Source of the DNA: a virus
DNA length: 64,000 nucleotides
Virus record (IMG/VR): IMGVR_UViG_3300030090_005562
Span: 64,001 to 128,000 of that record
Strand: one strand, 5' to 3'
The translations under genes and the position numbers were made by a program. Under the pieces are notes generated by a model. The model was not told where the DNA came from. It was given only the letters and a program-made list of their open reading frames with translations, and ran no database searches. Each line of letters starts with the position of its first letter. Position 1 is the stretch's first letter. Below, piece after piece: positions 37,619 through 56,069 of this stretch.

Positions 37619-37658
37619 TCAAGAATGCTCTTGACTTTTGCCGATAATATATTATAAT
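37619..37658 (+). promoter_or_regulatory. Composite sigma70 / sigma28-like promoter
   Basis: TCAAG(37619)-N16-GCCGATAA(37640) interleaved with TTGACT(37631)-N16-TATAAT(37653). Confidence 0.75.
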
Positions 37659-37703
37659 GGGGGCATGACAAACAACAATAATACTACTAAGGAAAACAAT
37701 AAC

Positions 37704-37937
37704 ATGTTTCAAGTAATTCAAACCATCGCTCGCTTTGGCCGTTTCAATCAAGAAGTTATCGGTAGCTTCGATACAATGAAAGAGGCGGCGGACTTCGCCA
37801 AGCGTTGCCACAATGGTAATCCTACTACGTGCATCAAGGATACTGAAAGCAATAAGGTATTCACCGCCCATAGGGATACCAATGGCACTTCGTTGGTATG
37901 GCAAACCGGTCCGATTTTCGCTGACCAAATACTTTAA
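37704..37937 (+). CDS. Small early protein, HNGNPTT family (paralogue of 38946..39167)
   Basis: Shares V.QT..R.G.F...VI......AA...A.R.HNGNPTT.I. Confidence 0.65.
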   Translation: MFQVIQTIARFGRFNQEVIGSFDTMKEAADFAKRCHNGNPTTCIKDTESNKVFTAHRDTNGTSLVWQTGPIFADQIL

Positions 37938-37954
37938 AAAATTATCAGAATTAT

Positions 37955-37995
37955 TCAAGAATGCCCTTGACAAATGACGATAATTATATTATAAT
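37955..37995 (+). promoter_or_regulatory. Composite sigma70 / sigma28-like promoter
   Basis: TCAAG-N16-GACGATAA with TTGACA(37967)-N17-TATAAT(37990). Confidence 0.75.
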
Positions 37996-38215
37996 GGCAA
38001 ACATGACAAACAACAATCAACAACGTTTTGAGAGGTTTAATACTATGAAAGAAATTATCTGCCAAATTTTGATGCCGCTGTGGGCGGTAGCCGTTGCACT
38101 CATTCCGATGGTTGCAATGTTCATCCTCTAGGGGATAGCATTAGGGCATCGACCCGCAAGCCTAGCCCAAGATGCTAGCATAGGTTGCCCCGCCTATTCA
38201 AGAAGGGGGCTTGAT

Positions 38216-38294
38216 ACAAAACCTTATGCTGTAAGCACTTAGGGTGGCTCGGCCTGCCCGCCGTGACGTAACTCTATACTACATAACGGCTTAC
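38216..38294. repeat. 79-bp element, copy 2
   Basis: Box A 38216-38242, core TCGGCCTGCCCGC, box B 38268-38294. Confidence 0.88.
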
Positions 38295-38548
38295 AACTAT
38301 TATGACTTTTTTTTTCTTTTTTGGTGAAATAGGGCTTGTATTTCCCAAACCATTCGATTAAAATATAGTATAAGAAAAAGGGAAAAACATTAAAGAAACA
38401 AGCAACAAAATGACGATAATAATAATAGAGAAAACAAACACGTGTGCCCCGCACACCTGTAGCCTTCCGGCGAGAAGGACAGAAGCGGGTTAAAGAAGAT
38501 ATGCAAACAACAAACAACAATACTCTAACCAAGAAAGGAGAAACAATC

Positions 38549-38713
38549 ATGGATTTTGATAATGGTATTTTTCGTACCGTTCCCCATGACACCATCGACG
38601 GTGTTGTGTGGTTGGTCCGCGTGGCTGATGGTGAGAGAATCACCTTCTGCCGGACTCAAGCTGACGTAGATTCCTGCGTCGCTGAGTTGATGCGACAAAG
38701 GCTTAGCCTTTGA
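38549..38713 (+). CDS. Small early protein, MDxDNGIF family (paralogue of 40572..40739)
   Basis: AAGGAG RBS; MDFDNGIFRTVPHDTIDGVVWLVRVADGERITFCR. Confidence 0.7.
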   Translation: MDFDNGIFRTVPHDTIDGVVWLVRVADGERITFCRTQADVDSCVAELMRQRLSL

Positions 38714-38945
38714 GCATCGGCGGGAAACGGGGCTTGACACATTGATTTTTGTTTGGTAGAATGAGAGAGTTATGATTGACATTGATAAAGCGATTACAGA
38801 ACACACCGAAAAATTCGACGCGATGATGGAAAAGCATCGTGCATTAATGGCGAAGCAAGATAGAGAAATTGCTGAGTTGCGGAATCAGCTTAATGGGTTG
38901 ATTGGCGTATTGGCTGATTGTAAATTAGAAATGAGGGATTGAGTT

Positions 38946-53323: not shown

Positions 53324-53362
53324 TAAAGATTCTATTGACAAGTGACGATAATGTTTTATAAT
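53324..53362 (+). promoter_or_regulatory. Composite sigma70 / sigma28-like promoter
   Basis: TAAAG-N15-GACGATAA with TTGACA(53335)-N16-TATAAT. Confidence 0.7.
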
Positions 53363-53407
53363 TGGTACAAGAGTTTTGTTAATTTAGTTATGAAGAAAGA
53401 GGACACT

Positions 53408-54088
53408 ATGAGTTTGACAAATGGAAGCGTTCGCGTTCGTAAACTTAGCGATGCGAAGGAAGGTAATGTTATTAGTTTTGTGTATTATGGTCATGGACAA
53501 AATCATGGTCAGTTGCGATACGCAGAGGTTCTTGAGGTTTTGGCTGACGGTATCTTGGCACAGGAGGTCAACGGCACGCATCCCAAGCACTTCAAGAATG
53601 GTGAAGCAGAGGATGTAAAGATGGAAGAAAAGCTGCAACAGATTGTATCTGGTGAAACAAAGGGTGTCACGTTTCTTGATGCAAAGGAAATGCTTGAGGA
53701 AGCTGGTTGGGCAAATGAGATTGTGCTTGATATGCTCACAGGCGAACAGTTGACGGTCTTGTTTGGCAGTTTTCATACTGCCAGAGAAAATGCTGATGCT
53801 GGCGAATTTGAATATCAGTGGGATTCCGAGAACGGAAATGTTCTGGTGATTGACAATCGTAATACGTCAAATATCAGTGTTGAACCTGTAGCCCATGACC
53901 ATACGCTTCGATACGTTACGTTTCGAGTGACCAACAATAAATTTGCACCTGGATTGATTGGTGGGTTCAGTGATTTTCGAGTTACCGTGGATGCGATGGG
54001 TAAAATTACGTTTCAGCATAATGAGGATGTTGTGAGCGTAGAGGATTTTTCCAAGGCACTTAACAGCCTGATTAACATTGAGGTTTAA
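53408..54088 (+). CDS. Hypothetical protein
   Basis: GAGGA RBS before the ATG at 53408. Confidence 0.6.
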   Translation: MSLTNGSVRVRKLSDAKEGNVISFVYYGHGQNHGQLRYAEVLEVLADGILAQEVNGTHPKHFKNGEAEDVKMEEKLQQIVSGETKGVTFLDAKEMLEEAGWANEIVLDMLTGEQLTVLFGSFHTARENADAGEFEYQWDSENGNVLVIDNRNTSNISVEPVAHDHTLRYVTFRVTNNKFAPGLIGGFSDFRVTVDAMGKITFQHNEDVVSVEDFSKALNSLINIEV

Positions 54089-54530
54089 GATGCTTGTTGA
54101 TATAGCCAAATACAAAATGCAACATTGCGATTTGAAGGAGGCTAAGAAGGGCCAAACTGCTCATTATGTGGAATTAAATCCCATGTGGGCAGTAAAGTTC
54201 TTCGAGCATAAAGAGGACAGGGACCACACATATCGTCTACAGAAGTATGCCAGCGAATCGTTCGCGGCACCTCCTGTGGGCGAGGTTCTTGTTGTTACTA
54301 GACAGAATAAGTTAGGACTCAGCACTACATTTTGGGGATACATAACTGGTGTAGCAAAGGTTGACAAAGACATTTCGTCTGATAAAATACAATGGTTATC
54401 CGACAAGTTACTTAGCATCGGAATCAAGTGGAACGATAAGCGTAGAGCAAACTGCGGTTATTACAATGGTAAATTAGTTTGCATCGACTTTGACTGTGAG
54501 GTTATAGACCATGAACATATTTTACCTTGA
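54078..54530 (+). CDS. Minimal protein-kinase-like fold protein
   Basis: WAVK, WNDKRRAN (catalytic-loop-like DxxxxN), VCIDFD. Confidence 0.55.
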   Translation: MRFKMLVDIAKYKMQHCDLKEAKKGQTAHYVELNPMWAVKFFEHKEDRDHTYRLQKYASESFAAPPVGEVLVVTRQNKLGLSTTFWGYITGVAKVDKDISSDKIQWLSDKLLSIGIKWNDKRRANCGYYNGKLVCIDFDCEVIDHEHILP

Positions 54531-54999
54531 CCATGACCAGAGTATTTGTGCAAAGTACCACAACGACCGGCATTGTGTCAAAATGATACTAGAGTATGCA
54601 CAGTTACTATGCACAGCACACAGAGAGTTAGACGGTGAGGATTGTGTTGAGCCAGAAGTTATGTATAAGCCCGCATACAAGAATCATCCATCAGCAATAT
54701 GGGCGAGAGCGTGCAGCAGAAATTATCTTTGGCTATACAAAATGTTCAAGGAATTATGCAAAGAATATACATATAGATACGAGAAAGAACATGCTTCATG
54801 GACTAAACTAGGATATCTGTTGGCACAAGTGCCAAAGAACATTGATGTAACGCCAGGGTTTACTCCACCAACGCCAGCGATGCCAGATGAATGTAAAATT
54901 GGCCCAACATCGCTAGAGAGTTACAGACACTACTATAATACAGAAAAAAGACACTTGGCAACATGGAAAAAACGTCCAGTTCCGGTATGGTATGACTAA
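54511..54999 (+). CDS. Pyrimidine-dimer DNA glycosylase (DenV-like family)
   Basis: MNIFYLD...HCVKMILEYAQLL...NHPSAIWAR...EYTYRY. Confidence 0.8.
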   Translation: MNIFYLDHDQSICAKYHNDRHCVKMILEYAQLLCTAHRELDGEDCVEPEVMYKPAYKNHPSAIWARACSRNYLWLYKMFKELCKEYTYRYEKEHASWTKLGYLLAQVPKNIDVTPGFTPPTPAMPDECKIGPTSLESYRHYYNTEKRHLATWKKRPVPVWYD

Positions 55000-55444
55000 A
55001 ATATGGGGAATCGGTCTACCAAGGACCGGAACAACATCGCTAGCAGAGGCATTAAGTCTGTTGGGTTTCAAGACCTCTCATCACTGTAAACTACAGAATG
55101 GAGACTCGTACCTATCAGATATATTAGAACAAGCACTAGACAATCAGGCAGTTGTAAATAACCATTTATACGATTTTTATCAGCGTATTTATGAGTTAGA
55201 GGCCATGGACGGGAAAATTGGTTTATATGTATTAACGTATCGTTTGGATAAATATGTATCAGAGAACTTGAAATACATGGCAGAAACCTACTCTTTCTTC
55301 GAGGAAAGGGGCTCAACAGACCATTTATTATTACTTGATACAGGAGCAAACGAAAAAGAGAAATGGAGAAAACTATCCGGTTTTCTAAGTATGGATACGC
55401 CCACTCATTCATTTCCTCATTTGAATAAGGGTTTGGGAATTTGA
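54992..55444 (+). CDS. Sulfotransferase-family protein
   Basis: GIGLPRTGTTSLAEAL..LGF (PAPS loop), WxxLxxFL...FPHLN. Confidence 0.75.
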   Translation: MTKIWGIGLPRTGTTSLAEALSLLGFKTSHHCKLQNGDSYLSDILEQALDNQAVVNNHLYDFYQRIYELEAMDGKIGLYVLTYRLDKYVSENLKYMAETYSFFEERGSTDHLLLLDTGANEKEKWRKLSGFLSMDTPTHSFPHLNKGLGI

Positions 55445-55789
55445 AATATAGTGAATCAACATTACGGCATATAGGAGATTTAGTAAATCAGGGTAGATTA
55501 CAGGATGCAATAGAGGCGGCAAAGGATTCTGGAAAATACAGTGAGGACGAGGCAAAGTCGTTTATACTCCAGAATGAAAGCGAACTTAGAAATGGCAGAC
55601 AAGAAACAAGGTCCGGTAATTGACCCAAAATCTTTTTATGACCCGTACAAAGAGAATGACCCCAGACCTAGAATCGTAGTAGAGAAAAAAAGAACGGAAT
55701 CAGAGGTCATGATAAATTACTTGACAATCATTACTTCAATAGTTACAATAGCGGCAGCTATCAAATACCTGATATTTAGCTAGAGAAAA

Positions 55790-56032
55790 ATGCGATATAA
55801 AAATAGGATGAAGGAAGTATTTGATAAAATGGAAGAGCCTGACGATAAATATGCGGAAAGGTTTGCAGAGGAACTACGCCGTGAACTGCTTGGCTATCAG
55901 GCCACCACTCAAAACCAAGTGGCAAGCACAATGCAGATAGCGATTAGATTCGTTATCGTTTCAGCGTTTGCCTTTTTCTGTGCCTGTTCTCTTGTTATTT
56001 CAGCATGTATAAAGTATTTATTTTTTAATTAA
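55790..56032 (+). CDS. Small membrane protein
   Basis: C-terminal hydrophobic segment ending IKYLFF, similar to the preceding ORF ending IKYLIF. Confidence 0.5.
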   Translation: MRYKNRMKEVFDKMEEPDDKYAERFAEELRRELLGYQATTQNQVASTMQIAIRFVIVSAFAFFCACSLVISACIKYLFFN

Positions 56033-56069
56033 AGTTTTTTGTTGACACATGCCGATAATCATTTATAAT
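56030..56069 (+). promoter_or_regulatory. Composite sigma70 / sigma28-like promoter for rIIA/rIIB
   Basis: TAAAG-N16-GCCGATAA with TTGACA(56042)-N16-TATAAT. Confidence 0.75.

Follow-up and report, generated by a model that had tools for sequence, protein, structure and literature searches.

A sigma28-like two-box motif written over and beside early sigma70-type promoters in a clade of uncultured phages

In the early region of the uncultured phage represented by IMG/VR virus record IMGVR_UViG_3300030090_005562, sigma70-type promoters are interleaved with a second pair of sequence boxes, T(A/C)AAG and GnCGATA(A/T), 15 or 16 bp apart, which raises the question of whether this pair is a promoter in its own right and, if so, which factor reads it. 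The record is 148,761 bp long (estimated completeness 60%, GC ~42%), and the stretch analysed here, called the window, comprises its bases 64,001-128,000, i.e., 64,000 nucleotides. The - strand of the window carries structural and packaging genes up to position 31,255 (TerL, portal, major head protein, a 2,374-aa open reading frame (ORF)); beyond 31,255 the + strand carries early/middle genes, among them rIIA-like, GP88-family, L5 gp82-like and GMP-reductase-like genes and two tRNAs. For comparison across the clade we used 20 related IMG/VR records, of which 12 are near-complete and 17 were searched for all three families of phage-encoded sigma factors described below; the completeness of the relatives is given as CheckV estimates.

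All 13 sites at which a first-pass annotation of the window had placed the box pair do contain it. Eleven follow the strict pattern T[AC]AAG-N15/16-G.CGATA exactly, and the two relaxed sites, 47759 and 48430, have GTCGATG and ACCGATA, respectively, as the downstream box, in agreement with that annotation; the first box is TAAAG at eight sites and TCAAG at five. In the window the strict pattern has 11 matches on the + strand and none on the - strand; over 300 dinucleotide-preserving shuffles of its sequence the mean number of matches was 0.08 and the maximum 2. GNCGATA by itself is found 71 times in the whole record, and the dozen copies in promoter context are those with a preceding TMAAG. As had been claimed, 11 of the 13 sites overlap TTGAC(A/T)-N15-17-TAnnnT promoters. 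When these sigma70 boxes are compared with TTGACA-N16-18-TATAAT, the spacer is 16-17 bp in nine of the 11 promoters, which show 0-2 mismatches (0-1 in eight of them), and 15 bp in the other two. The remaining two, 38391 and 39478, are stand-alone sites, each ~45 nt past a less convincing promoter candidate (TTGTAT-N17-TAAAAT) that is part of an 86%-identical repeat; at 38391 neither TTGACA nor a usable sigma70 -10 is present. One more site, the 14th, is found at genome position 137,924, beyond the end of the window; a tRNA-like stretch and a sigma-like gene follow it. Among the 39 strongest sigma70-type promoters of the record, nine have both CGATA in the spacer and TMAAG upstream, 29 have neither, one has TMAAG alone and none has CGATA alone (Fisher p = 4.7e-8). 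The strong early promoters thus fall into two classes, one that carries the overlay and one that does not.

That the box pair and the sigma70 boxes are two independent promoters written over each other, as the first-pass annotation had proposed, is well supported, because the pair keeps its own spacing across four registers and also occurs alone. In the window, the start of TTGACA slides (-11, +5, +7 and +11 to +14 from the start of TMAAG) while the distance from TMAAG to the G of the downstream box is constant at N15 or N16, again in line with that annotation. The four registers are distributed among 324 strict instances as follows. In register A (232 instances) TTGACA begins 10-14 nt past the TMAAG start, the downstream box falls into the sigma70 spacer and the -10 mostly comes 6 nt later. 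In register B (19 instances; 51561 in the window) TTGACA begins 7-8 nt past TMAAG and the -10 lies 1-2 nt past the downstream box. In register C (44 instances; 48430) TTGACA or TTGCAA precedes TMAAG by 7-11 nt and TGnTATAAT abuts GTCGATAT, and in register D (29 instances; 38391 and 39478), the stand-alone class, there are no sigma70 boxes. A scan of IMG/VR with the pattern TAAAG-N5-9-TTGACA-N1-4-GNCGATAA returned at least 118 stretches, with 2-4 copies in many contigs. In the 142 distinct promoters among the matches listed, the TAAAG-TTGACA gap (5-9) is anticorrelated with the TTGACA-G gap (1-4), the sum of the two being 9 or 10 in 94% of cases, and a proper -10 is found 16/17 bp from TTGACA in 132. 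Anticorrelated gaps with a fixed sum point to two independent two-box units sliding over one another.

The motif is conserved throughout the clade, which consists of uncultured phages of 130-240 kb. TAAAG-N15/16-GNCGATAA was found in 19 of the 20 related records, in 1-10 copies each, on a single strand and clustered in one region. The reversed pattern, used as a control, occurs 0 times in all related records, and the motif itself has 0 copies in five unrelated phage genomes (1.16 Mb), namely those of the weakly matching cultured phages mentioned below. In L005, an 89%-identical relative, the boxes are retained and their surroundings altered: at 47759 both boxes are conserved and the spacer bases differ, at 53324 the boxes are conserved and the upstream flanks have diverged, and at the rIIA promoter (56030) the TAAAG-to-TTGACA gap is 1 nt shorter in L005 (N15 instead of N16). 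The tRNA promoter at 48430 has TCAAG in the present phage and TAAAG in L005. The whole 51561 module (window 51560-51663, ~105 nt) is replaced by 33 nt in L005:4034-4067; promoter cassettes come and go as units.

The stand-alone class is informative as to the function of the motif. At 11 of the 29 stand-alone instances a start codon (10 ATG, 1 GTG) is located exactly 7 nt past the downstream box, with no other offset enriched. The ORFs that begin there, 91-131 aa long, form one diverged family of small membrane proteins in which the N-termini and the 7-nt spacers vary in sequence and no Shine-Dalgarno sequence is present. In the window, the ATG that follows the 39478 box by 7 nt opens a 157-aa ORF whose beginning, MKAFVFDFDDT, corresponds to the position of HAD motif I and which has a weak match to HAD_2; its transcript is predicted to be leaderless, starting at A39514. 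Start codons without Shine-Dalgarno sequences at a constant distance from the box are as expected for leaderless mRNAs and would make the motif a promoter in its own right, and we consider it quite probable that the box pair is one. From the leaderless gene starts we infer a transcription start 8 nt past GnCGATA(A/T). This is the usual -10-to-start distance if CGATAA is at -13 to -8, in which case GATAA and the next base fill -12 to -7. In all classes, TA is preferred at positions 7-8 past the box (61% each); in register A this is the TA of TATAAT. The conserved membrane protein (MIQWIGV...YCLMAYDPN...) is encoded at L158:18862-19134, L163:16904-17296 and 9 other loci in relatives, where its gene in every case follows a stand-alone motif and has a predicted leaderless start. 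The present record, which is incomplete, yielded no homologue.

Leaderless layouts also appear at many of the sigma70-type promoters: TATAAT-N6/7-ATG, without a Shine-Dalgarno sequence, is found at ATG 37665, 38003 and 43776 (the -10 of the 43730 promoter being TATACT), so that several early genes look as if they were expressed as leaderless mRNAs from sigma70-type promoters. The stretches from -10 to ATG are 37653-37667, 37990-38005, 43764-43778 and 56064-56078, and the ATG of the last, at 56076, opens only a 5-codon ORF ahead of the rIIA leader. The sites and the other features of the window discussed here are listed in Table 1.

Table 1. Motif-bearing promoters and related features of the window (window coordinates)
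Feature	Position	Strand	Elements	Context
Composite promoter, register A	37619..37658	+	TCAAG 37619-23, TTGACT 37631-36, GCCGATAA 37640-47, TATAAT 37653-58	ATG 37665, 6 nt past -10 (leaderless layout)
Composite promoter, register A	37955..37995	+	TCAAG 37955-59, TTGACA 37967-72, GACGATAA 37976-83, TATAAT 37990-95	
Stand-alone motif	38391..38419	+	TAAAG 38391-95, N16, GACGATAA 38412-19	Downstream of repeat-borne TTGTAT-N17-TAAAAT
Stand-alone motif	39478..39516	+	TCAAG 39478-82, N16, GCCGATAA 39499-506	7 nt, then ATG 39514
Composite promoter, register A	41799..41839	+	TAAAG, TTGACA 41811-16, GTCGATAA 41819-26, TAGAAT 41834-39	
Composite promoter, register A	43730..43769	+	TAAAG, TTGACA 43742-47, GACGATAA 43750-57, TATACT 43764-69	ATG 43776
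Composite promoter, register A	45140..45179	+	TCAAG, TTGACA 45153-58, GCCGATAT 45161-68, TATAAT 45174-79 (15-bp sigma70 spacer)	Upstream of GP88-family gene at 45212
Composite promoter, register A	46365..46405	+	TAAAG, TTGACA 46379-84, GACGATAT 46386-93, TATAAT 46400-05 (15-bp spacer)	
Composite promoter, register B-like	47759..47792	+	TAAAG 47759-63 abutting TTGACA 47764-69, relaxed GTCGATGT 47780-87, TATAAT 47787-92	
Composite promoter, register C	48419..48457	+	TTGACT 48419-24, TCAAG 48430-34 (within sigma70 spacer), TAAAAT 48441-46, relaxed ACCGATAA 48450-57	tRNA-Arg begins 48466
Composite promoter, register B	51561..51595	+	TAAAG, TTGACA 51568-73, GTCGATAA 51581-88, TATAAT 51590-95	
Composite promoter, register A	53324..53362	+	TAAAG, TTGACA 53335-40, GACGATAA 53344-51, TATAAT 53357-62	
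Composite promoter, register A	56030..56069	+	TAAAG, TTGACA 56042-47, GCCGATAA 56051-58, TATAAT 56064-69	Upstream of rIIA-like gene (56119)
r2-Zn family sigma-like ORF	30626..31255	-	Sigma2-like N-terminal domain, Cys-rich insert, short C-terminal helical domain	
TGGTGTATA copies	9474-9482, 12976-12984, 20673-20681, 24014-24022, 26270-26278	-	Exact match	
TGGTGTATA copies	32202-32210, 43582-43590	+	Exact match	5 more outside the window

The two boxes resemble those of sigma28 promoters. The consensus of 339 instances is yTAAAG(A/T)TT ... G(C>T>A)CGATA(A>T): the upstream, -35-type box is TAAAG in 75% and TCAAG in 25%, with C/T before it and (A/T)TT after it, and the downstream, -10-type box consists of G, then C (50%), T (26%) or A (20%), then CGATA, then A (76%) or T (23%). 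Both agree with the corresponding elements of the E. coli sigma28 consensus, TAAAGTTT-n11-GCCGATAA (PMC2859248), and of the SigD consensus, TAAA-N15-GCCGATAT (PMC5200910, PMC2532724). The spacing, however, does not, TAAA being followed by N16 (39%) or N17 (61%) in the phage as against the canonical N15, so that 12 (39%) or 13 (61%) bp separate the 8-mers instead of the 11 of the E. coli consensus. The first-pass annotation was thus correct in stating that the sites, TAAA-N16/17-G, are 1-2 bp longer than the canonical TAAA-N15-GCCGATAA. Because the spacing that defines the class differs, we call the motif sigma28-like and not a canonical sigma28 promoter. With the class-3 flagellar promoters (FliA in E. 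coli and Pseudomonas, SigD in Bacillus, WhiG in Streptomyces) it shares the TAAAG -35 with its T-rich bases, the -10 G(C)CGATA(A/T), the asymmetric two-part layout and, as predicted, a start a few nucleotides downstream. Unlike them, it has TAAAG-N15/16-G in place of N14, accepts TCAAG, varies at the second base of the -10, and is found in a phage, nested in sigma70 promoters. Recognition of the boxes by sigma70 itself, with CGATAA as the -10 and TAAAG as the -35, was considered and rejected, TAAAG matching TTGACA at 2/6 positions.

We propose that T(A/C)AAG-N15/16-GnCGATA(A/T) may be an autonomous two-box promoter, with a -35-like and a -10-like box, which would be read by host core RNA polymerase with an alternative sigma factor and would direct initiation ~8 nt past the downstream box. 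The phage would write this second promoter over or beside the strong sigma70 promoters of its early genes. RNA polymerase could then enter each gene by either of two routes that exclude each other, and in register A, the most frequent arrangement, the two starts would be separated by ~12 nt. Since no phage RNA polymerase was found in the clade, a sigma factor acting on the host core is to be expected. The likeliest reader would be a host factor of the sigma28 family (FliA/SigD type) that prefers a spacer 1-2 bp longer than the one known from model organisms; to our knowledge, sigma28 is the only class with these boxes.

No sigma28 homologue is present in the phage, and only three divergent families of small sigma factors were found. 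The first, sigma206 (206 aa; genome 138,058-138,678, L008:1039-1659, outside the window), is represented in 11 of the 17 records searched and in 9 of the 12 near-complete ones, and in the present genome it follows the motif-bearing promoter at 137,924 and the tRNA-like sequence. Its model aligns full-length with structures of ECF, SigB, WhiG and sigma28 factors, indicating sigma2 and sigma4 domains. The R-E-x-x-R-Q residues of region 4.2 are established by structural work to contact TTGACA. Region 4.2 of the family (typical member GVSREAVRQNIKRAL) aligns to that of primary sigma, GVTRERIRQIENKAL (TRERIRQ), and not to that of FliA, which argues against recognition of TAAAG by sigma206; the argument is less direct for the copy of the present phage, VSRQAVNQHISKAV, in which E is replaced by Q and R by N. 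The second family, sigma164 (164 aa; genome 141,163-141,657, L007:1180-1674, outside the window), also has sigma2 and sigma4 domains and a recognition helix nearly as in sigma206, and it is found in the present phage and its two close relatives as well as in G008 and G014. Sigma206 and sigma164 may be sigma70 surrogates. Their genes adjoin phoH and a gene for a ClpP-like protein.

The third family, r2-Zn, includes the ORF at 30626-31255, which matches the family profile with E = 1e-40 and has no match in Pfam, PHROGs or NCBIfam. Its N-terminus aligns to region 2 of SigB, SigW, CnrH and SigE and has a fold like that of the SigE N-terminal domain, and no sigma4 signature is detectable in the C-terminal domain. 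The family has ~1,700 metagenome members, some of them labelled sigma24-type by JGI. Eleven of the 12 near-complete genomes have it, in each case at the head of the terminase operon and divergent from the neighbouring motif-bearing region; in the sole exception, G001, the sequence ends where the gene is expected. In the window the terminase/structural operon opens with this gene, which is driven by a sigma70-type promoter at ~31436 on the - strand. Distantly related phages from several metagenomes share the gene order seen at 28311-31255 (- strand; sigma-like gene, 272-aa ORF, nucleotide-sugar epimerase, ERCC4-like nuclease, terminase).

A second motif without resemblance to sigma70 promoters, (T)GGTGTAT(A/T), lies 25-70 nt before structural genes, with AT-rich sequence upstream and no conserved -35. 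The record contains 12 exact copies of TGGTGTATA, and among its upstream 8-mers GGTGTATA ranks first; k-mer enrichment was limited to upstream regions because its genome-wide version was dominated by coding repeats. GGTGTAT(A/T) is present in G000, G003 and G006, in the relatives G003 and G006 upstream of genes. We regard GGTGTATA/GGTGTAT(A/T) as a candidate late promoter. Phage sigma cascades are well known, for instance those of SPO1, with gp28 and gp33/34, and T4, whose gp55 recognizes TATAAATA; phiEco32 gp36 recognizes a TGTATA-type -10. By analogy with T4 gp55, a sigma factor in which only the sigma2 domain is sound, such as r2-Zn, would be the natural reader of late promoters that have a -10 only. 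The present phages are like SPO1, T4 and phiEco32 in encoding sigma-like proteins and in having a late motif without a -35, and a temporal switch is plausible. They differ in that each promoter class of those phages has its cognate phage sigma, whereas here no phage sigma clearly co-varies with the T(A/C)AAG/GnCGATA motif, whose boxes instead imitate those of a host sigma class.

These distributions allow a choice by elimination. G005 (91% complete), G006 (100%) and G010 (73%) have 4-9 copies of the motif and no homologue of sigma206 or sigma164 detectable by homology searches, so these two are not general readers. In G006 the late motif would take up the sole phage sigma, which would leave the TAAAG/CGATAA promoters to a host sigma. 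The elimination argument is coherent, if indirect, and it makes a host sigma28-family factor the leading candidate, to which we give slightly less than an even chance.

The alternative that survives best, less likely as we judge it, is that the motif is read by a phage-encoded sigma, mainly r2-Zn and in some phages sigma206 or sigma164, which would have evolved convergently to read boxes like those of sigma28 but further apart, in a classical early-to-middle switch. All near-complete genomes with the motif have a gene for one phage sigma or more, the additional 1-2 bp of spacer are more easily explained by a non-canonical factor, and the sigma206 gene of the present genome is itself behind a motif-bearing promoter; the presence of r2-Zn in 11 of the 12 near-complete genomes, its position beside the motif-bearing early region, its sigma70-type promoter and its sigma2 fold also speak for this reading. 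However, sigma206 and sigma164 are missing from G005, G006 and G010 despite the motif, and the -35 recognition helix of the sigma206 type resembles that of primary sigma. The C-terminal domain of r2-Zn shows no sigma4 signature, and if r2-Zn were the reader, the late GGTGTATA promoters of the same three genomes would be left readerless. Moreover, the motif is invariant while the phage sigmas diverge to ~30-36% identity. Thus, of the suggestion in the first-pass annotation that the ORF at 30623..31255 is a phage sigma that might read the motif, the first part holds, the protein having a sigma2 domain and belonging to a clade-wide family, and the second does not fare as well, since the late GGTGTATA motif is the better fit.

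It is improbable that the boxes are instead the operator of a phage or host regulator that shuts off or modulates the sigma70 early promoters by occluding the -35/spacer or the start. The boxes do overlap sigma70 core elements in all of registers A, B and C, the two main registers differ by 21 bp, so that the helical phase is kept, and the box centres are about two helical turns from each other. Yet neither dyad nor direct-repeat symmetry is seen, TAAAG and CGATAA being unrelated, nor is the position fixed: the -35 box slides by at least 4 bp relative to the motif, against a stereospecific contact. The stand-alone sites have no sigma70 promoter to control and nevertheless an ATG without Shine-Dalgarno sequence exactly 7 nt downstream, and both boxes, flanks included, match a known sigma class. 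Finally, the idea that the motif is functionless and inherited with a duplicated promoter cassette or repeat, as could be imagined from the several window sites that follow copies of a 77-95-nt repeat and have T-runs and leader sequences in common, is effectively refuted by the conservation pattern, the motif being present outside the repeat array (51561, 53324, 56030 and genome 137,924), in four registers and in hundreds of diverged instances across the clade, with boxes conserved while intervening and flanking bases vary both within the window and between relatives.

The repeat itself is 77-95 nt long and present in 8 copies in window 37511-48417 (e.g., 45035-45111), upstream of promoters. 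Between two CGTAAC...(G)TAACGACTTA boxes it has a palindrome rich in GC (GCGGGC.GCCCGC); a T-run comes next, and the promoter after that. The repeat could be a terminator, an insulator or a protein site. Its AACGACTTAGG box also precedes motif promoters in many unrelated IMG/VR contigs, which makes it a clade-wide element. The TGGTGTATA copy at 43582 is inside a 77-nt repeat element and not directly before a gene.

Several points weigh against a host sigma28-family factor as the reader. The elimination depends on the CheckV completeness values and on the unproven assignment of r2-Zn to the late motif. The spacing is N16/17 and not N15, the reference being E. coli, Pseudomonas and Bacillus; sigma28 reportedly tolerates 11-12 bp between the 8-mers, according to mutational work in Chlamydia/E. 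coli, and ~60% of the sites fall outside this range. About a quarter of the sites use TCAAG. Substitution of one base in TAAAG severely impairs the aer promoter of E. coli, although TAAAG->TCAAG was not among the changes assayed (PMC2859248). The evidence for leaderless starts is drawn from only two gene families. Similarity searches gave no cultured relative: neither megablast of the region nor tblastn with rIIA, TerL and the sigmas found a close one, the best cultured matches being phages of Rhodobacter, Vibrio, Aeromonas, Microcystis and Bacillus at 25-33% identity. A search of genome contigs with the sigma206 profile gave a single 2.3-kb contig in a Saccharibacteria metagenome-assembled genome, probably mis-binned, and the GMP-reductase-like gene returned mostly viral clusters from a protein atlas. 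A DUF3721 match, the weak Microcystis-phage matches and speD beside a homologue had raised the idea of a cyanobacterial host, which is not supported, psbA and speD being absent from 17 related records.

Promoters served by both sigma70 and an alternative sigma are found in bacteria and phages, and the promoters described here would be like them in having two recognition frames on one DNA stretch and, as predicted, two starts a few nucleotides apart with input from two sigma pools. They differ in being systematic, as the overlay is found in about a third of the strong early promoters, in hundreds of cases clade-wide and in four registers. Our literature searches found nothing on phage promoters with this box pair. 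It is possible, and we put it forward tentatively, that the clade has hard-wired promoters for the host motility sigma, sigma28, into its early promoters, with some genes expressed from them alone as leaderless mRNAs; we know of no phage that uses sigma28 in this way. A host flagellar or developmental sigma had also been suggested as reader in the first-pass annotation, which imagined early and middle genes firing, for example, in swimmer as well as sessile cells of a dimorphic host.

If this is true, early expression would read out the motile state of the infected cell, and a host sigma28 with an unusual spacer optimum would be implied. The dual design could sustain early expression after sigma70 has been inactivated or has lost out to a competitor, or raise it in motile cells with free sigma28. 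Genes that have the motif only (the membrane-protein gene of the relatives and, in the present phage, the HAD-like gene and the ORF that follows 38391) would rely entirely on the second sigma. A testable rule follows: the two starts should be separated by ~12 nt, and the leaderless genes should use the second one. The motif can also serve as a sequence tag by which members of this large family of uncultured phages may be recognized, and as a handle on their hosts, in which sigma28 promoters with a 12-13 bp spacer would be expected, and the promoters themselves offer compact two-input designs. If confirmed, these would be systematic, clade-wide nested dual promoters that could couple early phage expression to host motility or development; the alternative, a phage sigma whose promoters have come to imitate those of a host factor, with a longer spacer, would be equally novel.

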